Assembly (NCBI GenBank): GCA_031409335.1
Contig: JANNWY010000171.1
Coordinates: 1 to 17,864, forward strand
Length of the DNA stretch: 17,864 nt
Origin: Chthoniobacteraceae bacterium
Lineage (GTDB): Bacteria > Verrucomicrobiota > Verrucomicrobiia > Chthoniobacterales > Chthoniobacteraceae
Reading direction: 5' to 3'
The translations under genes and the position numbers were made by a program. This document shows positions 347 through 15,953 of this stretch, piece by piece. Position 1 is the first letter of the stretch. The number at the start of each line of letters is the position of its first letter. The notes beneath the pieces were generated by a model. That model had not been told where the DNA came from and ran no database searches. It saw nothing but the letters and a program-made list of their open reading frames with translations.

Positions 347-376
347 TTGACAGCACGCCCATTCCGCGTCGATAAA
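347..376 (+). promoter_or_regulatory. Putative sigma70-type promoter for block 1 (-35 TTGACA 347-352; weak -10 GATAAA 371-376)
   Basis: Perfect TTGACA, 18-nt spacer, 4/6 match to TATAAT. The predicted +1 falls near the GTG at 383, which would give a leaderless mRNA. The ORF track's TTG start at 347 is probably this -35 box. Confidence 0.4.
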
Positions 377-382
377 ACGCCC

Positions 383-799
383 GTGCGCTTCTCGCTCCGC
401 ATCTTTTCATTGCTGACTTTTCTCGGCTGGCTCTTTGCCACCGGGCATGTCGCGGCGGAGCATCACGGGATGTCGGTGGCGGGCGGTGTTCATCACGAGA
501 TGGAGGGCGGGGCCGATCACCACGACGATGCGCCGGGGCACGACGGCGATCATCACGGGCACGATCTCATGGCATTTGCGCCGGGACATTTTGCGAAGAC
601 TGCGGAGCTAAAGGCGCTCGCGCCGGTGTGGGTGCCGCTTTCAGGCGCGGTCGTCGAGCGTTTGCTCGCGATGGTGCGCGAGACGGAGGATGCGAGTTGG
701 TCGGCGGATGGCGGCCCGCCGCTGGCAGATGAAAGACTCTCGGGCTGGCTCCTGGTGGTTCAGACCGCGCTTCCGGTGCGCGGTCCTTCGTTGATCTAA
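383..799 (+). CDS. Small exported His-rich protein / putative metal-sensing leader (CzcI-position, DUF2946-like architecture), ~138 aa from GTG 383
   Basis: N-terminal hydrophobic signal-like segment (RIFSLLTFLGWLFATGHVAA), 12 His and no Cys, C-terminus ALPVRGPSLI. Lies directly upstream of the czcC-like gene. Start could be 347 (TTG) or 383 (GTG). Confidence 0.75.
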   Translation: MRFSLRIFSLLTFLGWLFATGHVAAEHHGMSVAGGVHHEMEGGADHHDDAPGHDGDHHGHDLMAFAPGHFAKTAELKALAPVWVPLSGAVVERLLAMVRETEDASWSADGGPPLADERLSGWLLVVQTALPVRGPSLI

Positions 800-827
800 A
801 GTCAGTCCCGTTCGGGTCTGACTTTTT
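798..827 (+). terminator. Terminator/attenuator-like hairpin overlapping the leader stop codon
   Basis: AAAGTCAG (798-805) pairs with CTGACTTT (818-825); T.T mismatch; CCC/GGG inner stem; GTTC loop; T-run 823-827. Confidence 0.6.
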
Positions 828-915
828 CGCACGTTCACGCGGCGCACTTTCGCGCCTGCGTTTCGGGCACGCCGCTGCGCGCCGCCATCTCCTTTCACCT
901 TCCAATCAAACACCC

Positions 916-6709: not shown

Positions 6710-7825
6710 ATGCCAGACTTCGTTCAAGCACTGCAAAGCGGCAGCACGAGCCTCTGGCTTTTCATCCCCACCGCCATCCTGCTCGGAGCCTTGCACGGGC
6801 TGGAGCCGGGGCACTCGAAGACGATGATGGCTGCGTTCATTATTGCCATCCGGGGCAGCATCGCGCAGGCCGTCCTGCTCGGCGTTTCCGCGGCGATTTC
6901 GCACTCCTTCATCATCGCGGTGCTCGCGTTCGCGGCGCTGCATTTAGGCAGTCAGTGGAACGCGGAGAACATCGAGCCTTATCTGCAAATCGGTTCCGCT
7001 GTCTTCATCCTCGCGCTCGCCGTCTGGATGTTCCTGCGCACGCGGAGGGACTTGCGCGACGCGCATCATCATCACGACCACGGACACCATCACCAAGGCC
7101 ATGACCACGAGCACGACGAAACATTCCTGCTCGATACGGACCACGGCAGAATCGAACTGAGCGTCTTCGAGGATGGCGTGCCGCCGGTCTTCCGCCTGCG
7201 CGCGCCGCTGGGTGAGACGCTGCCAGACGCGGCCAGCGTAGCCGTCGAAACCGTGCGCCCCGACGGCGCGCGGCAGACGTTCGCCTTTACCGCCAAAGGC
7301 GACGTTCTCGAATCACGCGGTTCGATTCCCGAGCCACACGAGTTCGATGTGGTGATGACCGTGACTGCGGGCGGCGAGCGCCACACCGCGCGCGCAGAAT
7401 TCCGCGAAGATGCCCACGCCCACGGCGAGGGCACGGACTTCCAGGATGCGCACGAACTCGAACACGCCGAGGACATCCGCCAGCGCTTCGCCGGGCGGGC
7501 CGTCACCACACCGCAGATCGTGCTCTTCGGCATCACCGGCGGCCTCATGCCGTGCCCTGCCGCATTCAGCGTCCTGCTCATCTGTTTGCAGCTCAAACGC
7601 ATCGCCCTTGGCTTCACGATGGTCGCGTCGTTCAGCTTTGGCCTCGCGCTCACGATGGTCACGACTGGCGTGCTCGCTGCCTGGAGCGTGCAGCACGCCT
7701 CGCGGAAGTTCCGCGGCTTCGGCGAAGCGATGCGGCGCGCGCCTTACATCTCATGCGCAGTGCTCGTGATCATCGCGCTCTACATGGCCGTCCACGGCTG
7801 GCGCGGCCTCGCCGCCCATACCTGA
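6710..7825 (+). CDS. rcnA: RcnA-family Ni/Co efflux transporter with His-rich loop and inserted soluble domain (371 aa)
   Basis: LGALHGLEPGHSKTMMAAFIIAIRG; His loop at 7064-7114; QDAHELEHAEDIRQRF; FGITGGLMPCPAA; RRAPYIS. Confidence 0.9.
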   Translation: MPDFVQALQSGSTSLWLFIPTAILLGALHGLEPGHSKTMMAAFIIAIRGSIAQAVLLGVSAAISHSFIIAVLAFAALHLGSQWNAENIEPYLQIGSAVFILALAVWMFLRTRRDLRDAHHHHDHGHHHQGHDHEHDETFLLDTDHGRIELSVFEDGVPPVFRLRAPLGETLPDAASVAVETVRPDGARQTFAFTAKGDVLESRGSIPEPHEFDVVMTVTAGGERHTARAEFREDAHAHGEGTDFQDAHELEHAEDIRQRFAGRAVTTPQIVLFGITGGLMPCPAAFSVLLICLQLKRIALGFTMVASFSFGLALTMVTTGVLAAWSVQHASRKFRGFGEAMRRAPYISCAVLVIIALYMAVHGWRGLAAHT

Positions 7826-9172
7826 TTGATTGTGAACGCTTCCACCACCGATTCACCGCTCTGGCGGCACGGCGTTTTTCAAAAGCTGTTCTGGGCGCAT
7901 GTCATCAGTCTCGTCGGCAGCGGGCTGAGTTCCGTCGCGCTCGCGCTGCTGGCGCATCAGTTGGTCGGGGCTTCCGCGTCGGCAGTGCTCGGCATCACGC
8001 TCGCGATCCGCATCGTCGTCATCGTCTTCTTCTCGCCGTGGGCGGGGCAAATCGCGGAACGCTGCGGCGCGCGGGTGCTGATGATCGGGAGCGACCTCCT
8101 GCGCGCCGGTATCGTCGTCGGCTTTTTCTTCGCGGAGAGCGTGTGGCAGATCTACGTCCTCGCCTTTTTTCTCAATCTCGGCGCGGCGATCTTCACGCCC
8201 GTCTATAAGGCGGTGATCCCCGGCGTGGTCTCGGAGAAGCAGTATCCGCAAGCACTGGCGCTCGGGGCCATCGCCTACGACACGGCGAACATCCTCGGCC
8301 CATCGCTCGCCGGTTTATTCATCGCGACGTTTGGTTTTCGCGGCAATTTCCTCGCCGATGCCGTCACGTTTCTGGTTAGCGCCGCGCTGCTCTTCGCCGT
8401 GCGCCGCCCGGATGTGGACGGTCTTCGCGCGAACAAGAAACCGACCGCGCTCGGGCACGGCCTCACCGCCATGTTTCAGCGCGCTCCGTTGCGCGAGACG
8501 TTGTTCCTCGCGTTGCAGGTCAGCGTCTCGGGCGCGTTTGTGCTCGTGGCGACGGTGGACTTCGTGAAAGGCCAGCTCGGCTTGCCCGACAGCGCCTACG
8601 CTTGGGCGATGGCCGCCTATGGCATCGGCTCGGTCTGCGGCGCTGCCCTCTACGCCCGCGTCTCGCCGCGCACGCGCGATCACTTCGTCGCGGCTTGCGC
8701 GCCGGCCATGCTGCTCGCCTTTGCCTTGGCCGGCGGACTCCAGCAATACATCCCGCTGCTCGTCGGCTGGGCCTTCGCCGGCGCGGCACAAAGCATTCTT
8801 GGAATCCGCGCCAATGAACTGCTCGCCGCGAACAGCGTCGGCGACGAACGCGCTCATATTTACGCCGCGCACTTTTCCCTCAGCCACGCCGGTTGGGGCC
8901 TCACCTACCCGCTGGCGGGACTGCTCACCACCGCCATCGGCTTCGCTCCCACCGCAGGCATCTTCGCCGGCCTGCTCGTGCTCGTGACGGCCCCGATGTG
9001 GTTTCAACGCGGCCGTCTCGCCGCGACCCACGCCCACGCCCCGGATCGCCAGCACGCCCACGCCCACAGCGCCCTCGAACCGCCGGGCGACTATCACACG
9101 CACGAGCACCGCCACGGCGACATCGTGCATTCCCATCCCCACCGCCACGACGTTCCGCATTCGCACGAATAA
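7826..9172 (+). CDS. nreB: MFS exporter, NreB/NrsD-like nickel resistance protein with His-rich C-terminal tail
   Basis: LFWAHVISLVGSGLSSVALALLA..VLGITLAIR; YAAHFSLSHAGWGLTYPLAG; tail HAHAPDRQHAHAH..HTHEHRHGDIVHSHPHRHDVPHSHE. Start is TTG 7826 or GTG 7832, abutting the rcnA stop. Confidence 0.8.
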   Translation: MIVNASTTDSPLWRHGVFQKLFWAHVISLVGSGLSSVALALLAHQLVGASASAVLGITLAIRIVVIVFFSPWAGQIAERCGARVLMIGSDLLRAGIVVGFFFAESVWQIYVLAFFLNLGAAIFTPVYKAVIPGVVSEKQYPQALALGAIAYDTANILGPSLAGLFIATFGFRGNFLADAVTFLVSAALLFAVRRPDVDGLRANKKPTALGHGLTAMFQRAPLRETLFLALQVSVSGAFVLVATVDFVKGQLGLPDSAYAWAMAAYGIGSVCGAALYARVSPRTRDHFVAACAPAMLLAFALAGGLQQYIPLLVGWAFAGAAQSILGIRANELLAANSVGDERAHIYAAHFSLSHAGWGLTYPLAGLLTTAIGFAPTAGIFAGLLVLVTAPMWFQRGRLAATHAHAPDRQHAHAHSALEPPGDYHTHEHRHGDIVHSHPHRHDVPHSHE

Positions 9173-9231
9173 AGTCCGCTGGACCAAACACTGCTTGAAC
9201 GACAACGATAACTGCTGCATCTAAGCGCCGA

Positions 9232-9672
9232 TTGAAACCGCGTCCTAAATCCCATATCGTCTCCATCGTGCTGTGCGTGCTCGCACTGTTCGTGGCGCAG
9301 ACGTTTGGCAGCAAGGTCGCCTACTACTGCCTGTGCGGAGGCAAGCCGGTGCCGACGCTGACTGCGTATTGCTATGGACCGCATGGAGAAGAATGTGCGG
9401 AAGAGGAAGCGAAGGCCGGCGATGCGCCCTGCGAAGACAACGAGGGTGGGGACCGCAAGGATCATCAGGTAGTGTCGCAGGAAGTGCCGATGCGGGCGAT
9501 GGACGCGAAGGCGCAGGTGTTCGCGCCGCAGGTGTTGCTGGCGGTGTTGCGCGTGGTGGATTTTGTTTATGCCGATCGGGAAGTGAAGGCTCCGACCGGT
9601 TATCTCACGAGGTTTGGGGAGTCGCCGCCGTTTGGAGTCACGGTGGCCCGCACGATCGTTCTGCGGATCTGA
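9232..9672 (+). CDS. Small exported Cys-rich protein / putative metal-sensing leader (resembles HYC_CC_PP-type architecture), 146 aa
   Basis: Signal-like N-terminus (IVSIVLCVLALFVAQTFG); YYCLCGG, YCYGPHGEEC, PCED; C-terminal SPP..RTIVLRI. Directly upstream of the second OMF. TTG start is uncertain. Confidence 0.75.
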   Translation: MKPRPKSHIVSIVLCVLALFVAQTFGSKVAYYCLCGGKPVPTLTAYCYGPHGEECAEEEAKAGDAPCEDNEGGDRKDHQVVSQEVPMRAMDAKAQVFAPQVLLAVLRVVDFVYADREVKAPTGYLTRFGESPPFGVTVARTIVLRI

Positions 9673-9676
9673 GTCA

Positions 9677-9789
9677 GGGTTTGGTGACGGCACTCGCCGT
9701 TGCCGTTTGTCGTCCGCGCCGAGCGCACCGTCGCACTCTTGCGACCCTTTAAGCGCCTGCGCGGGTCTGTCCGTCACGTCACCCAACCC
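9677..9789 (+). promoter_or_regulatory. Structured intergenic RNA between leader 2 and OMF2
   Basis: GGGTTTGGTGAC (9677-9688) pairs 11/12 with GTCACCCAACCC (9778-9789). Alternative pairing GTGACGG (9684-9690) with CCGTCAC (9771-9777). Local hairpins ACGGCA/TGCCGT (9687-9706) and GTCGCA-ctct-TGCGAC (9730-9745). Confidence 0.5.
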
Positions 9790-9797
9790 ATGCACTC

Positions 9798-11039
9798 ATG
9801 TCTTTTCCCAAATCCATTTTTCTATTCTTCGCCTGCGCGGCCTCCGCGTGGGCCGGCACCGTGTCCCTCAGTGTCGAGGGCGCAGCCGATTACGCGCTAA
9901 AGCGCAACCCAACCCTTGCTGCCGCCCGGCTCCGCATTGAGGAAGCGCGCGGGCGGCTCCAGCAAAGCGGCCGGCTCAGCAATCCTGAGCTGGAGCTGGG
10001 TTTCACGCGCAACACCGTCGGGCCGGAAGGTTCTGCGGGCATTTCGCTCATGCAGAGGTTTCCGCTCACGGCGCGGCTTCGCTTTGAAAAGGCAGTCTCC
10101 AAAGCCGAACTCGCCGCCGCCGAAGCGGAAGTGCGGGATGCCGAGCGCAAGCTCGCTGCCGAAGTCCGCACCGCTGCGGTGAAGCTGCTTGCCCTTGCTG
10201 GTCAGCGCGATCTTCGCACCAAGCAACTCGGCAACAGCCGCGAGCTTTTTAGCTTTCTCAGCAAACGCGTCGCGGCGGGCGAGGCATCCGCCGTCGATGC
10301 TTCACAGGTGGAACTCGAATCGCGCCAAATCGAAGTCGAGAACCTCATGCTCGCGGCGGATGAAGCGGTGCTGCTCGGCGAACTCCGCCCGCTGCTCGGC
10401 GTCGCGGGCGAGAACCGCGTCGCGATCACCGGTGAATTGCCCGTGCCCAAGGGCATCCCCGCCGCGCGTGAGGTTAGCGGACGGGCGGACATCCTCGCGG
10501 CCGAATCCCGCGCGGAAGCGGCGCGCTGGGTCGTGTTGGAGCAGCGCGCGCGGAAGTGGGAGGATTTCGGCATCGGCGCTTCCTACTCGCGCGACCGCAC
10601 GCTCGATGAACCCGAGCCGGTCGAAACGGAGCACATCTTCGGCATCCGGTTCAGCTTTCCGCTGCCGCTCTGGAACAACAATTCCGGGCGCATCCGCGAA
10701 GCGCAAGCCGCTGCGAAGCGGACGGAACTGGAAGTCGATGCGACTAGGCTCGGCGCGAACGCGGAAGTCTTCGCCGCGCTGAGCGCGATGCGCGCCTACG
10801 CCAAGCTCATCGGCGAACTCGACGACCAGGTGCTGCCTGCTGCTACGCGGATCGAAGAGCAGCTTCGCACCAGCTACTCGACCGGCCTCACGCCGCTCAC
10901 CGACGTGCTGCGCGCCCGCACGCGCCGGCTCGAACTCCAACGCCAGCGCCTCGATGCGCTCCGCGAATATCAACTCGCCCGCATCCGGCATTCCGCCGCG
11001 ACGAGCCAATCCAACTTAACTTCCAAGACTTACAAATAA
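9798..11039 (+). CDS. Second TolC-family outer membrane factor (413 aa)
   Basis: Signal peptide (ASAWA); ALKRNPTLAAAR..GRLSNPELE; FSFPLPLWNNNSGRI; YSTGLTPLTDVLRAR. Stop overlaps the next start (TAATG). Confidence 0.88.
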   Translation: MSFPKSIFLFFACAASAWAGTVSLSVEGAADYALKRNPTLAAARLRIEEARGRLQQSGRLSNPELELGFTRNTVGPEGSAGISLMQRFPLTARLRFEKAVSKAELAAAEAEVRDAERKLAAEVRTAAVKLLALAGQRDLRTKQLGNSRELFSFLSKRVAAGEASAVDASQVELESRQIEVENLMLAADEAVLLGELRPLLGVAGENRVAITGELPVPKGIPAAREVSGRADILAAESRAEAARWVVLEQRARKWEDFGIGASYSRDRTLDEPEPVETEHIFGIRFSFPLPLWNNNSGRIREAQAAAKRTELEVDATRLGANAEVFAALSAMRAYAKLIGELDDQVLPAATRIEEQLRTSYSTGLTPLTDVLRARTRRLELQRQRLDALREYQLARIRHSAATSQSNLTSKTYK

Positions 11040-12214
11040 TGAAACGCATCCTTCCCATTCTGGCCCTCTGCGCCGCCGCCAGCCTCGGCTTTGCCCAGGA
11101 AAAAAAGGCGGACAACAAACGCATGGCCAATACGGTCGTGCTCGACGAAACCGGGGTGAAAAATCTCCGCATCGAAACGGTGGAGGTCGATGAAACGGAC
11201 TTCGAGGAAATCATCTTCTCGCTCGGGCGCATTGAGGCGATTCCCAGCAAGACGGCGGCGGTGAGCAGCCGCGTGCCGGGACGCATCATGGAGCTGAAAG
11301 CGAACCCCGGCGATCAAGTGACTGCGGGGCAGGACGTGGCCCGCCTCGAAAGCCGCCAAGCGGGCGATCCACCGCCGAGCATCCTGCTGAAAGCACCCAT
11401 CGCGGGCCTCGTCACGAAAGTCGATGCGCGGCTCGGCGATCCGTTGGAACCGGACAAGGCGCTGCTCGAAATCACCGATCTCAGCGAAGTCTATGCGGTG
11501 GCGCGCGTGCCCGAGCATCAAGCTGGCAGCATGAAGCCGGGCACCGTCGCGCACATCAAAGTGGCCGCGTTACCAGAGGAGAACTTCGACGGCGAACTGC
11601 TGCGCTTTGGCACTTCGGCGGACAAGCAGAGCGGCACCATCGACGCGATTTTTCGCCTGCCGAACAAAGGAGGGCTGCTGCGCGCCGATATGCGCGCGGA
11701 GTTTTCCATCGTGCTTAGCAAACGCTCCGGCGTGGTCAGCGTGCCGCGGGCGGCGCTGCAAGGCGAGGCGTCGAACCGCTTCGTCTATGTGGAGGACTTC
11801 GATTTGAAAAATGCCTTCGTTAAAACGCAGGTGCAGGTCGGGCAGATGAATGATCGCTTCGTGGAAATCACGAGCGGTCTGCTGCCCGGCGACAAGGTGG
11901 TGAAGCAGGGCGCATATTCGCTGGCCTTCGCGGGCGGGGGGAGCGTGTCGCTGAAGGACGCGCTTGATGCGGCGCACGGTCACGAGCACGCGGCGGACGG
12001 CTCCGAATTGAAACCTGAAGACCAGGCCAAGAAAGCGACTGGCGACGATGGCCACGGCCACGGCGAGGGCGCGCACTCCAGCCCGCTGTGGAAGATCGTG
12101 AGCGGCGTTCTCTTTGTGCTGCTGCTCGTTTCCACGCTCACGAAGCGTGGCGGGGCCGCGCCGACGAAAATTGCCGCGAACCAACCCGCATCCAAAGCGG
12201 AGGAGGCACGGTAA
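11039..12214 (+). CDS. Second RND periplasmic adaptor (MFP) with His-rich segment and C-terminal hydrophobic helix (391 aa)
   Basis: Signal peptide MKRILPILALCAAASLGFA; VSSRVPGRI..PGDQVTAGQ; LKAPIAGLV; LRADMRAEF; VPRAAL; VEITSGLLPGDKVV; AAHGHEH..GHGHGEGAH; LWKIVSGVLFVLLLVSTL. Confidence 0.88.
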   Translation: MKRILPILALCAAASLGFAQEKKADNKRMANTVVLDETGVKNLRIETVEVDETDFEEIIFSLGRIEAIPSKTAAVSSRVPGRIMELKANPGDQVTAGQDVARLESRQAGDPPPSILLKAPIAGLVTKVDARLGDPLEPDKALLEITDLSEVYAVARVPEHQAGSMKPGTVAHIKVAALPEENFDGELLRFGTSADKQSGTIDAIFRLPNKGGLLRADMRAEFSIVLSKRSGVVSVPRAALQGEASNRFVYVEDFDLKNAFVKTQVQVGQMNDRFVEITSGLLPGDKVVKQGAYSLAFAGGGSVSLKDALDAAHGHEHAADGSELKPEDQAKKATGDDGHGHGEGAHSSPLWKIVSGVLFVLLLVSTLTKRGGAAPTKIAANQPASKAEEAR

Positions 12215-15200
12215 TGCTCAACAAGATGATTCATTGGTCGCTCGCGAATCGGGCGATCATCATCGGCATCTCGCTGATCCTGATGGTCACGGGCTTGCGG
12301 ACGGCCACGCAGTTGCCCGTCGAGGTGCTGCCGGACTTGACCAAGCCGACCGTCATCATCCTCACCGAAGCGCCGGGCCTCGCGCCGGAGGAGGTGGAAA
12401 CGCGCGTGACGCAGCCCATCGAAAGCGCGCTCATGGGCGTCGCCGGGTTGACGCGGCTGCGGTCGAACTCCGACGTGTCGCTCTCGCTCGTCTATGCCGA
12501 GTTCGGCTGGGACACCGACATCTACAAGGCGCGGATGCTCGTGCAGGAGCGAATGCAGGGCGTGCGCGAACAACTGCCCGAAGGCGTGCAGCCGTTCATG
12601 ACGCCGGTCGCCTCGCTCATGGGCGAAATCCTGCTTGTCGGCGTGCGCTCGACGATCAAGGAAGGCGAGCCCGGTTACATCCCACCGCGCGATGTGCGCG
12701 CCCTGGCGGATTGGACGATCAAGCGCCGTCTGCAAAGCGTCTCCGGCATCGCTGAAATCCTGAACATGGGCGGCGGCGTGAAGCAGATCGAGATTCAGCC
12801 CGACCCGTTTCGGATGCAGGCCAATAGCGTGAGCTTTGAAGAGCTGGAGAAGGCCGCAGGAGACGCGGCGAACACGACCACCGGCGGTTTCATCAACACC
12901 GGCCCAACGGAAATCATGGTGCGGAATCTCGCCATGACGGTGCAGCTCGAAGACATCGCGCGCACCGTCATCAAGAAGATCAACGACCGGCCCATCCTCA
13001 TCTCCGACGTGGCGAAAGTGGTGTGGGGCATCGAGCCAATGCGCGGCGACGCGACGGTGAGCCAGAACCCGGAGAAGTCACCGACTTACGGCGTCATCAT
13101 GTCGATCACCAAAGCGCCGGGTTTCGACACTCGCGCGCTGACCGAGCAAATCAAAGCCGCGCTCGATGAGCTGGGGACGACCTTTCCGAAAGGCGTCGAG
13201 ACGACGCTGCTCTTTCAGCAAAAGGATTTCATCGACCACGCCATCGGCAACCTCGCAGAAGCCATCCGCGACGGCGCGATCATGGTGACCATTGTCATCT
13301 TTTTGTTCCTGCTGAATTTCCGCACGACGTTCATCACGCTCATGGCGATGCCGCTTTCCTTCGGCATCACCATGCTGACCTTCAAGTGGTTCGACATCTC
13401 GGTGAATTCGATGACCCTCGGCGGCCTCGCCGTCGCCATCGGCATGGTCGTGGATGACGCCATCGTTGATGTGGAAAATGTCTTTCGTCGTCTGCGCGAA
13501 AACGCCGCATCGCCGCATCCGCGCCCGAAGCTGCACGTCATCGCCTCAGCCTCCGGCGAAGTGCGGAACTCGATCCTCTACGCGACGATTCTCATCATCC
13601 TCGTCTTCCTGCCGCTGCTCGGTCTGAGCGGCGTCGAGGGCAAGCTCTTCGCCCCCATCGCCATCGCCACGATCATTTCGATGATGGCGTCCTTCGTCGT
13701 TTCGCTGACCGCGATCCCGGTGCTGTGCTCCTTCCTGCTGAATCCCAAACACGGCGGCGAACACAAGGATGGGTTCCTCGTGCGCGGGATGAAATGGCTG
13801 CTCGAAAACACGCTGCTCCGCTTCGGCCTGAGCCAGCCGTATCTGCTCCTCGCCATCGTGCTGATGATCGTGATCGGCGCGTTCTCGCTCTATCCGCAGA
13901 TGAGTAAGGACTTCCTGCCCGCCTTCAAGGAAGAGACGCTGCTCATCGCCGCGACTTCCGCGCCCGGCACTTCGCTGGAGGAAATGAACAAGATTTCCGA
14001 CGTGCTCGAACAACAAATCCTCTCCGTGCCGGACGTGCGCAAAGTCGGGCGTCGGCTCGGTCGCGCGGAACGCGGCGATCATGTCGTGCCGGTTTCGACG
14101 GCGGAGTTCGACGTGGATTTCCGCGAGGCCGAAGGGCATCTCAGCGGCAAGGGACGGACGCGGAAAGAGATCATCGAAGATGTCACGAAACGCGTGCGCT
14201 CGGTGCCCGGCGTTTTTGCCGCAGTCGGCGGGCCGCTCGCGGATCGCATCGGCCACATGCTCTCCGGCGTGTCCGCGCCCGTGGCCCTGAAAATCTTCGG
14301 CCCGGACCTCGATAAGCTGCGCCAACTCGGCATCGAGGTGCAGGCCGTGGCGAAGACCATCCCAGGTTTTCAGGACGCGAAACTCGACCAGCAATCGAGC
14401 ATCCCGCAACTCCGCATCGAGGCCGACCGCGACCGCGCCGCCGCGTATGGCATCGCGCCCGGCCACTTGAACGAACAGCTCTCCGCGCTCATCGGCGGGA
14501 AGGAAGTCGCCGAACTGCGCGAAGGCCAGCGCGCGGTGAATCTCGTCCTGCGGCTCCCTGTCGAGTGGCGCGATTCGCCGGATCGCATTGCGCGGCTCCC
14601 TGTGGAAACCACCACCGGCCAGCACATCCCGCTCTCGCTCGTGGCCGACGTGCGTGAGGCGAAAGGTCCGAACGTCATCTTCCGCGAAAACAGCCAGCGG
14701 CGTTTCACCATCGCGATCAAACCGACGGTGCGCGATGTCGGCGTGCTCGTGCAGCGGCTGCAAAAAGAAGTGAGCGATAAAGTGGCGCTGCCCGAAGGTT
14801 ACTTCATCACTTACGAGGGCGAGTTCCAGGCGCAGAAGGAAGCCACGCAGCGCATTGTCATCTTCTCCGCGCTCGTCCTCGTGGTCATCGCCTTCCTGCT
14901 CTACGGCTATTTCAGGACGCCGTTTTTCGCCGCGCAGGTGCTCCTCGACATCCCGCTCGCGCTCGTCGGCGGGCTGGTCTTCACCTACCTGAAGTTAGGA
15001 AATATCAGCATCGCCACGCTGGTCGGCTTCATCGCCGTGGCCGGTGTCGCCGCGCGGAATTCGATCATGCTCATCTCGCACTTCCTGCATCTCATGGCGG
15101 TGGAAGGTGAAACCTTCACCAAGGAAATGATCATCCGCGGAACGAAGGAGCGGCTCGTGCCCGTGCTGATGACCGCGCTCGCCGCGGGCATCGGCCTCAT

Positions 15201-15384
15201 CCCGCTCGTCCTCGCTGCCGATCAGCCGGGCAAGGAAATCCTGCATCCCGTGGCCGTCGTCATCGTAGGCGGACTCATCACCAGCACGCTCCTCGGCCTC
15301 GGGGTCACGCCCACCGTCTTCTACACGTTCGGACGCAAAGCCGCCGCGACCGCCGTCGAAAACGAAGCCGGAGCCGCGCACTGA
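12214..15384 (+). CDS. Second HME-RND efflux pump (CusA/CzcA superfamily, subgroup distinct from the first), 1056 aa
   Basis: True start is ATG 12214 (TAATG coupling; GGAGGAGG SD at 12199-12206), not 12088. Motifs: PVEVLPDLTKPTV..TEAPGLAPEEVE, TM4 MTLGGLAVAIGMVVDDAIVDVEN, GRAERGDH, ERLVPVLMTAL, GKEILHPVAVVIVGG. Confidence 0.93.
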   Translation: MLNKMIHWSLANRAIIIGISLILMVTGLRTATQLPVEVLPDLTKPTVIILTEAPGLAPEEVETRVTQPIESALMGVAGLTRLRSNSDVSLSLVYAEFGWDTDIYKARMLVQERMQGVREQLPEGVQPFMTPVASLMGEILLVGVRSTIKEGEPGYIPPRDVRALADWTIKRRLQSVSGIAEILNMGGGVKQIEIQPDPFRMQANSVSFEELEKAAGDAANTTTGGFINTGPTEIMVRNLAMTVQLEDIARTVIKKINDRPILISDVAKVVWGIEPMRGDATVSQNPEKSPTYGVIMSITKAPGFDTRALTEQIKAALDELGTTFPKGVETTLLFQQKDFIDHAIGNLAEAIRDGAIMVTIVIFLFLLNFRTTFITLMAMPLSFGITMLTFKWFDISVNSMTLGGLAVAIGMVVDDAIVDVENVFRRLRENAASPHPRPKLHVIASASGEVRNSILYATILIILVFLPLLGLSGVEGKLFAPIAIATIISMMASFVVSLTAIPVLCSFLLNPKHGGEHKDGFLVRGMKWLLENTLLRFGLSQPYLLLAIVLMIVIGAFSLYPQMSKDFLPAFKEETLLIAATSAPGTSLEEMNKISDVLEQQILSVPDVRKVGRRLGRAERGDHVVPVSTAEFDVDFREAEGHLSGKGRTRKEIIEDVTKRVRSVPGVFAAVGGPLADRIGHMLSGVSAPVALKIFGPDLDKLRQLGIEVQAVAKTIPGFQDAKLDQQSSIPQLRIEADRDRAAAYGIAPGHLNEQLSALIGGKEVAELREGQRAVNLVLRLPVEWRDSPDRIARLPVETTTGQHIPLSLVADVREAKGPNVIFRENSQRRFTIAIKPTVRDVGVLVQRLQKEVSDKVALPEGYFITYEGEFQAQKEATQRIVIFSALVLVVIAFLLYGYFRTPFFAAQVLLDIPLALVGGLVFTYLKLGNISIATLVGFIAVAGVAARNSIMLISHFLHLMAVEGETFTKEMIIRGTKERLVPVLMTALAAGIGLIPLVLAADQPGKEILHPVAVVIVGGLITSTLLGLGVTPTVFYTFGRKAAATAVENEAGAAH

Positions 15385-15476: not shown

Positions 15477-15953
15477 ATGAAATCCATCGCACTGAAACTC
15501 CTCACCGCCCTCGCGCTCACCCTCCCCGCTTTCGCCGCCGACAAGCACGAACACGGGAAGAAAGAAGAAGGCCCGAATGGCGGTCGCGTAATCACCGCCG
15601 TCGAACCGCACCTTGAATTCCTCGTGACCAAGGACCGCAAAGTCGAAATCACCGCGCTCACCGAAGCCCTCAAGCCCGGCAAGCTCAGCGGCCAGGTCAT
15701 CGCCGTCACCGCTGGTGATCGCAGCAATCCGACGAAGCTCGAATTCAAGGAAGACGGCGGCAAACTCGTCTCCACGAACGCACTCCCAGCGGGCAATGAC
15801 TTCCCCGTCTCCGTGAGCATCAAAGCGAACGCGAGCGGCAAAGCCGTTTATGAGAAGTTCAACCTGAACCTCGAAAAGTGCCCGACCTGCAAGCATCAGG
15901 AATACGCCTGCGTCTGCGCCCACGCGCACGAGGATGACAAGAAGAAGAAGTAA
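15477..15953 (+). CDS. Secreted putative metal-binding protein (GPNGGR domain plus C-terminal CxxC/CxC/His cluster), 158 aa
   Basis: ATG 15477 after an A/C-rich tract; signal peptide ending AFA; KHEH, GPNGGRVI; C-terminal CPTCKHQEYACVCAHAHE. Confidence 0.85.
   Translation: MKSIALKLLTALALTLPAFAADKHEHGKKEEGPNGGRVITAVEPHLEFLVTKDRKVEITALTEALKPGKLSGQVIAVTAGDRSNPTKLEFKEDGGKLVSTNALPAGNDFPVSVSIKANASGKAVYEKFNLNLEKCPTCKHQEYACVCAHAHEDDKKKK

Follow-up and report, generated by a model that had tools for sequence, protein, structure and literature searches.

The locus and the leader 2 gene

The window, that is, the whole stretch of 17,864 nt analysed here, contains a metal-resistance cluster, as judged from its open reading frame list and from Pfam and NCBIfam scans. 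Among named sequences, its nearest relatives are MAGs of the Chthoniobacteraceae. The gene order is leader 1, OMF1, MFP1 and a CzcA-type RND gene, an RcnA-like gene, an MFS gene, leader 2 (9232–9672), OMF2, MFP2 and a CusA/CzcA-family RND gene (CusA2), with a gene for a ZntA-type ATPase farther downstream of the latter, and no transcription regulator is annotated within the window. OMF2, MFP2 and CusA2 overlap each other, and a gap of 125 nt separates leader 2 from OMF2. The features of leader 2, its mRNA and its pump operon are the following:

9232–9672 (+), leader 2 open reading frame, 146 aa, TTG start, TGA stop at 9670–9672 (open reading frame list, homologues, conserved start)
9232–9300 (+), signal-like segment with basic n-region, hydrophobic core, conserved Ala22 and invariant Gln23 (alignment; helix 7–25 in the structure model)
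9328–9465 (+), Cys/His domain, residues 33–78 (residue conservation among 85 members)
9520–9570 (+), hydrophobic spacer, about 35–50 residues before the C-terminus (hydropathy profile)
9622–9630 (+), SPP (proline 12–16 residues from the end in 103/106 loci, PP at the exact place in 50/106)
9637–9672 (+), conserved hydrophobic tail and UGA, a putative termination-arrest signal (tail and stop conservation)
9665–9688 (+), 5' arm of a stop-anchored helix (OFF state), including the stop codon and 9677–9688 (folding, duplexes, covariation)
9683–9704 (+), hairpin P1, predicted ON-state fold with a ribosome at the stop codon (covariation, RNAalifold, folding)
9714–9764 (+), hairpin P2, which brings both helix arms together, variable in length and sequence (weak support in consensus folds)
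9778–9803 (+), 3' arm, the G-poor OMF2 initiation region including the AUG at 9798–9800 (folding, duplex tests)
9798–11039 (+), OMF2, outer-membrane efflux protein (PF02321)
11039–12214 (+), MFP2, periplasmic adaptor (PF16576, TIGR01730)
12214–15384 (+), CusA2, CusA/CzcA-family heavy-metal RND (TIGR00914 over cut-off)

In an alignment with E. coli CusA, the three CusA methionines that we take to be its Cu(I) site are replaced by A, T and H in the window RND, and ZneA scores slightly above CusA against this protein. Both points make a divalent-metal pump likelier, and the substrate of the leader 2 pump is thus likely to be a divalent metal and not Cu(I)/Ag(I). The source genome has a second leader-2-type copy, located before a paralogous pump, and a third OMF2 copy (contig C240:1-1765) that is 88% identical over residues 237–413 and cut by the contig end. 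In both paralogous operons, the CusA-type gene is followed on its 3' side by a gene for a secreted-looking protein (window 15477–15953; paralogue C281:7024-7479(-)); this protein has a GPNGGR motif and a C-terminal CxxC..CxC, is without a family match, and is a candidate periplasmic metal chaperone. The MFS gene ends 59 nt before leader 2, and the MFS and RcnA-like proteins contain long His-rich segments (9030–9172 and 7070–7460, respectively).

The initial annotation had described leader 2 as an open reading frame with a signal-like segment, Cys and His residues, a hydrophobic spacer and a terminal SPP..RTIVLRI-stop, and all these elements are present at 9232–9672. The TTG start is backed by the relatives, as ATG, GTG or TTG occurs 20–23 codons before the invariant Gln23 in 99/99 parsable loci (2 of 101 loci were not parsed). 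A leaderless GTG start at 9268, served by a sigma-70-like site at 9232–9260, was ruled out, since the relatives keep a start codon at the position of 9232. The basic n-region is found in 94/99 loci, together with the hydrophobic core, and the signal would probably be cleaved at A22/Q23, judging from the alignment. The mature part contains C33xC35, C47, H51, C55, C67 and H78, and a hydrophobic stretch at about residues 97–113. Among 85 members with a mean identity of 26%, Q23, C33 and C47 are invariant, and C35, C55, H78 and P133 are nearly so (C33 85/85, C35 80/85, C47 85/85, H51 69/85, C55 76/85, H78 84/85). Despite this low identity, the distance from H78 to the C-terminus is 70 residues with an sd of 2.8, and few Cys or His occur among the last 60 residues. 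The AlphaFold model of leader 2 has a pLDDT of 71.7 and a pTM of 0.42, with a pLDDT of about 88–90 in a small Cys/His region at residues 31–50, and no PDB entry matched it at E≤0.001.

The open reading frame at 9232–9672 is a real conserved gene. It has 40 close homologues and 286 representatives at E≤0.001, with relatives in 37/151 genomes of the window's family and in 121/145 of family f41 (Prosthecobacter records included), both of them families of the Verrucomicrobiae; in a sample of the phylum Verrucomicrobia, 5/401 genomes matched, all of them within these two families. In the literature searched, from which subscription papers were absent, no description of the leader-2 family was found. 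Removal of 15 duplicates from 122 loci left 107, and in 104/107 the leader precedes the same OMF/MFP–CusA-type pump. The gene directly 3' of the leader is OMF-like in 97 loci; in 7 it is MFP-like, with a frameshifted OMF behind at least one of these cases, and three loci have none (two contig ends, one rearranged). In L005, L027, L030 and L061 the leader adjoins the MFP gene without an OMF gene in between and the hairpin is kept, and in L029, from position 1490 onward, unrelated sequence breaks the spacer after P1 and no pump gene lies within the locus. Protein counts refer to 106 loci, as the doubtful partial match L072 was left out, and RNA tests to 101, as five more loci (truncated, rearranged or near-duplicate) were left out; nine start codons were set by hand. 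As the loci are related, all such counts overstate independence.

A predicted two-state mRNA controlled by a ribosome at the leader stop

The terminal LRI highlighted in the initial annotation is not itself a conserved motif, since it ends just 28/106 loci; what is conserved is a hydrophobic tail that keeps a constant spacing to the UGA. The last residue is I, V, L or M in 106/106 loci, of which 88 have Leu at the third position from the end. In a set clustered at 50% (n = 150), the corresponding numbers are 146 for the final I/V/L/M and 112 for the third-last Leu, with LRI in 26 and PP at −15/−14 in 75. The stop is UGA in 102/107 loci and UAA in 5/107, compared with UGA in 2858/5388 genes (53%) of the source genome as called by our own script, and T is the third base of the last codon in 73/101 loci, compared with 85/367 (23%) of upstream Ile/Val codons. 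Pairing between stop and start requires a T-ending last codon, with which this bias agrees. Because RNA pairing alone can thus explain both the UGA and the T-ending last codon, neither proves an RF2-specific arrest; three of nine distant, diverged leaders stop at UAA.

The region 9660–9810 folds at z = −3.03, and 2/200 shuffles fold equally well. As had been noted, 9677–9688 pairs 11/12 with 9778–9789, the mismatch being U9682–C9784, and the helix proved to be longer: it extends over 9665–9688 and 9778–9803, with UGAG opposite a CUCA whose final base is the A of the AUG. Taken alone, the post-stop segment failed as a conserved element, as its duplexes were no better than controls (cognate −9.97 vs non-cognate −9.02; 15/101 loci in the best tenth). 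The stop-spanning duplex reached −17.4 for cognate and −13.9 for non-cognate partners, with 42/101 loci in the best tenth, and a control window upstream gave −13.46 and −13.51. Low-G control genes had a smaller cognate advantage (−1.15 vs −3.52 for the leader loci; 21/150). Pairing partners of the OMF initiation region are most frequent between −7 and +9 relative to the stop. The 9677–9688 stem is therefore the clade-specific inner half of a conserved stop-centred helix. In a subgroup with weak duplexes (e.g., L012, L049, L050, L061), values are just −4 to −5.

Covariation of the helix was found for part of the family. In f41 the helix consists of RUUUGAG with CUCAAAY; in all 56 unselected loci it is 78.3% paired with 51 two-sided changes, which 0/500 shuffles matched, and in a hand-chosen subset of 32 loci it is 85.6% paired and recovered by RNAalifold unaided. 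In the 20 closer relatives of the window, the long helix is 71.6% paired, but the number of two-sided pairs is not above shuffles (96/500), and RNAalifold returned P1 and not the long helix.

Mutually exclusive stems had also been postulated. The complementarities exist, with 9684–9690 being the exact complement of 9771–9777, and 9687–9692 that of 9701–9706, but the conserved alternative is another one, namely the covarying hairpin P1 at 9683–9704, which excludes the inner long-range stem in the window's clade. In 41 loci of the window-family type, two-sided changes are seen at eight of nine P1 pairs (0/500 shuffles, for cells as well as covariation score). In 97% of loci, but in 67% of 799 control gene pairs, there is a post-stop hairpin of −8 kcal/mol or below. 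The P1 loop centre lies 16.5–29.5 nt past the stop, and the core stem starts at a median of 11 nt after the UGA. The loops are conserved by lineage (ACUC/AUUC/GCUC vs CACGAU variants) though the stems vary (L001–L122), hinting at a protein or tertiary contact. A hairpin that blocks the A site must sit 11–12 nt from the P-site codon, i.e., 5–6 nt after the stop, according to the accessible part of PMC7282821; this function is not favoured for P1, whose core stem starts at that distance in 7/99 loci. A search of 9100–9900 against Rfam at E≤1 gave 0 matches.

The prediction that a ribosome at the leader end frees the OMF2 start was borne out by folding calculations. The window's own OMF2 start, which costs 18.4 kcal/mol to open, costs 2.1 with the ribosome in place, and when the RNA is masked to 9678, the fold flips to P1 and the unpaired fraction of 9778–9809 rises from 0.34 to 0.65. 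Across the loci, a ribosome mask at the stop lowers the opening cost of the OMF start by a median of 4.33 kcal/mol, and by >2 in 71/101 loci (48/69 in a thinned set), compared with a median gain of 0.34 in controls and gains >2 kcal/mol in 55/200 controls and 32/150 low-G controls. A mask through the stop alone already gives 3.0, so the result is independent of footprint length. The gain is 6.3 in f41-like loci vs 2.1 in the window's group (median 2.09; >2 in 23/44). These computations show a conserved two-state mRNA that is gated by ribosome occupancy of the stop codon. The lack of a Shine–Dalgarno sequence at the OMF2 start, which had been noted, is genome-wide and no special trait: SD-like sequences are found in 7.6% of starts genome-wide vs 9.3% in the control. 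An out-of-frame ATG lies 8 nt upstream of the OMF start in just 16/101 loci.

Leader 1 and diverged leaders

The leaders before OMF1 orthologues, to which leader 1 belongs (window 347–915; L148–L171), form a separate set with tails of the types TALPVRGPS.. and (D/E)(H/Y)PPQ(L/I)A. Their stops are TAG in 13, TAA in 9 and TGA in one of 23 cases, and leader 1 matches DUF2946 weakly, at 15.2 bits and under the cut-off. The contrast drawn in the initial annotation between the two leaders was upheld: the leader-1-type loci are without a stop-to-start helix (duplex −8.77 for cognate vs −8.71; median opening change −1.2) and often have U-tailed hairpins, which supports two different logics within the window. 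Many of these hairpins start at the stop and end in a U run, which is consistent with transcription attenuation.

OMF2-like matches in 13 other genomes gave 14 loci, two of them from one genome, with nine diverged leaders, three PP-terminal leaders, one family member and one locus without a leader. The nine diverged leaders, in families f24/f69, share a TVLR(V/I)-like tail with leader 2, and seven of them have R(G/A)PP 19–20 residues from the end. A comparison with the leader-2 family by hhalign gave 50.8% over 33 columns, and owing to this weak homology we treat them as look-alikes. In 7/9, despite unrelated sequences, the opening cost decreases from 11–15 to 2–5 kcal/mol with a ribosome at the stop site and is 9–16 with a ribosome at the PP site; for the other 2/9, the folding calculation gave no switch. 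At L134:916-1350, a leader-2-like tail (GPP..LQRSVL) is joined to a terminal HAPP motif, and this leader may connect the stop-arrest type with the RAPP type.

Interpretation and comparison with known systems

We consider it somewhat more probable than its negation that leader 2 is a CutF-like periplasmic metal-sensing leader that presumably arrests at termination in a metal-dependent manner. The ribosome tunnel and the Sec channel together hold about 60–65 extended residues, and as H78 lies 70 residues before the C-terminus, the Cys/His domain would in its entirety just have reached the periplasm at the stop. In the OFF state, the ribosome would terminate and leave, and the helix 9665–9688/9778–9803 would re-form over the OMF2 initiation region. 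In the ON state, the Cys/His domain, located just outside the Sec channel when the UGA enters the A site, would bind metal, the hydrophobic tail in the exit tunnel would delay release, the helix would stay melted, P1 would form, and OMF2–MFP2–CusA2 would be translated. In this model, we infer export, metal binding, arrest, metal as the ON signal, and the identity of the metal.

The main rival is plain translational coupling, by which leader 2 would be a secreted metal-binding chaperone or buffer whose translation melts the helix without sensing, and whose tail would be the end bound by a protease or a partner. We regard this as rather unlikely, although helix and opening need no arrest, ordinary termination would likewise melt the helix briefly, which is a point against the arrest model, the modelled Cys/His region is small and folded (residues 31–50 at pLDDT ~88–90), and hydrophobic C-termini are ligands of PDZ proteases. 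However, the fixed distance between H78 and the end, together with a last part of 60 residues that is poor in Cys/His, suits a nascent chain and not a free protein; a structured 125-nt spacer would be costly, since the pump's own genes overlap, and a separate secreted-looking Cys/His protein is encoded 3' of CusA2 in both paralogues. Transcription attenuation would make P1 a pause site or terminator, or the C-rich spacer a Rho site, with the ribosome at the stop controlling termination as in CruR, which uses Rho according to the text available to us (PMC9426467). A terminator scanner scored 9682–9705 as terminator-like, P1 is the most conserved element, and P1 and the G-poor spacer persist where the long helix is weak. 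Nevertheless, attenuation appears improbable, as a U tract (at least five U in the next 8 nt) follows P1 in just 8/101 loci, the window's own copy having one; moreover, transcription reaches the distal arm only once P1 has been made, so that this arm cannot antiterminate it, and stop-to-start covariation would have no role.

An EF-P-sensitive arrest at the PP motif, as reported for CutF, would agree with the proline 12–16 residues from the end in 103/106 loci and with the R(G/A)PP of seven of the nine distant leaders. However, a ribosome at this place, 13 codons upstream of the stop, leaves the start closed (median change 0.0 in 101 loci; 9–16 kcal/mol in seven distant loci), and with PP at −15/−14 in just 50/106, we think that this explanation has little chance of being correct. 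Marginally less probable still is a secretion monitor, in which the tail arrests by default and Sec pulling releases it, with Cys/His serving disulfides or folding, and envelope or export stress as the signal. Stop-codon arrest in secreted uORFs upstream of secA/secDF is known, as far as the portions seen of PMC10987492 describe it, but the genes downstream of the leaders are always heavy-metal RND systems, and the His residues are conserved as strongly as the Cys residues. Recoding of the UGA by selenocysteine or readthrough, stimulated by P1, would fit the hairpin that follows the UGA (median distance 11 nt) and is nevertheless extremely unlikely, given that no tRNA-Sec is listed for the source genome (one tRNA is undetermined), the frames of the next ATG are mixed (26/43/32), the readthrough length is not conserved, and UAA is used in 5/107 loci. 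The mixed frames also rule out a leader–OMF fusion by readthrough.

If leader 2 arrests at its stop, as we prefer to think, the family would be a testable case of termination arrest coupled to a periplasmic ligand, and pairing of a leader stop with the next start would be a way to gate initiation without Shine–Dalgarno sites. It would also explain the regulation of the pump without an annotated transcription regulator in the window. As the layout recurs in diverged leaders, an unannotated class might be sought by the combination of signal, Cys/His, hydrophobic tail–stop and stop/start helix. A generalization, which we hold to be somewhat less likely than not, is that such leaders are class-wide periplasmic sensors that block their own termination across the membrane, with the domain 70 residues from the tail and the stop as an anti-initiation element for an SD-less start; they would probably sense divalent metals, and Cys/His leaders of Bacteroidota might possibly be included.

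Leader 2, the 85 members and the nine distant leaders gave no match at cut-off in Pfam/NCBIfam scans. The layout had reminded the first annotators of HYC_CC_PP, a family that, like DUF6769 and DUF8199, has a small Cys/His layout similar to that of leader 2. By language-model features, the nearest named clusters are indeed HYC_CC_PP (NF047658), DUF6769 (PF20558) and DUF8199 (PF26622), all of Bacteroidota (0.94; 116–132 shared features), but HMM comparison gave no match to any of them. The suggested membership in HYC_CC_PP was not confirmed, with NF047658 (cut-off 28 bits) matching 0/85 members, nothing in the source genome and 0/9 distant leaders; it also had 0 matches in 201 phylum genomes, a search without a positive control, as no control genome passed the cut-off. 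DUF2946 (PF11162), also proposed as a model to search with, matched 0/85 members at E≤1, and in the source genome just leader 1 and one other site score, both under the cut-off. A plasmid search for named leader annotations yielded weak TolC matches alone.

Leader 2 is similar to CutF of Rhodobacter capsulatus, as described in the parts available to us (PMC9973294; bioRxiv 10.1101/2025.02.05.636593), in its probable Sec-type signal, Cys/His motif, C-terminal prolines, the cis stem-loop over the initiation region of the next gene and, presumably, metal-induced ON logic. In the same sources, OEP genes are the commonest neighbours in the CutF-like survey. By the survey's rules and not its protein list, leader 2 compares as follows: it is shorter than 150 aa (146), the next gene is on the same strand within 1000 nt (125-nt gap), and PP lies within 15 residues of the C-terminus (−15/−14 in the window; 50/106 relatives). 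From the same partial accounts, CutF differs by CxxxC in place of CxC/HC-H-C and by prolines three residues from the end rather than 12–20, and leader 2 differs by the predicted arrest at the stop, by a helix that includes the stop codon and lies over an SD-less start, and by the missing DUF2946 match. With CruR/DUF2946, as far as PMC9426467 was accessible, leader 2 shares a length of ~145 aa, a presumable export, a Cys motif, the position at the head of a metal-transport operon and a spacer of >100 nt. CruR has CXXC and a RAPP-like motif, at which arrest has been shown according to the portion seen of PMC12992588, whereas CXXC occurs in 3/106 leader-2 loci, CxC in 97/106, and R(A/G)PP is present among the final 40 residues of 1/106; in CruR, an importer is switched off via Rho, whereas our results favour an exporter that is opened at the level of translation.

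Termination-arrest peptides of the TnaC/PepNL/NSP-stop type are characterized by constant spacing between conserved residues and a conserved stop, a feature that leader 2 shares. TnaC is reportedly an arrest peptide of the stop-codon type. PepNL blocks RF2 at UGA through hydrophobic residues, as stated in the available part of PMC11890864. In the material accessible on these peptides, none contains a metal-binding domain in the periplasm or precedes a metal pump, and their tail sequences are unrelated to that of leader 2. In the literature searched, as far as its texts were available, two metal-sensing leaders have experimental support, both copper-specific, proline-arrest and proteobacterial; if our reading is correct, leader 2 would represent a third logic, beside those of CutF (PPP arrest) and CruR (RAPP/Rho).
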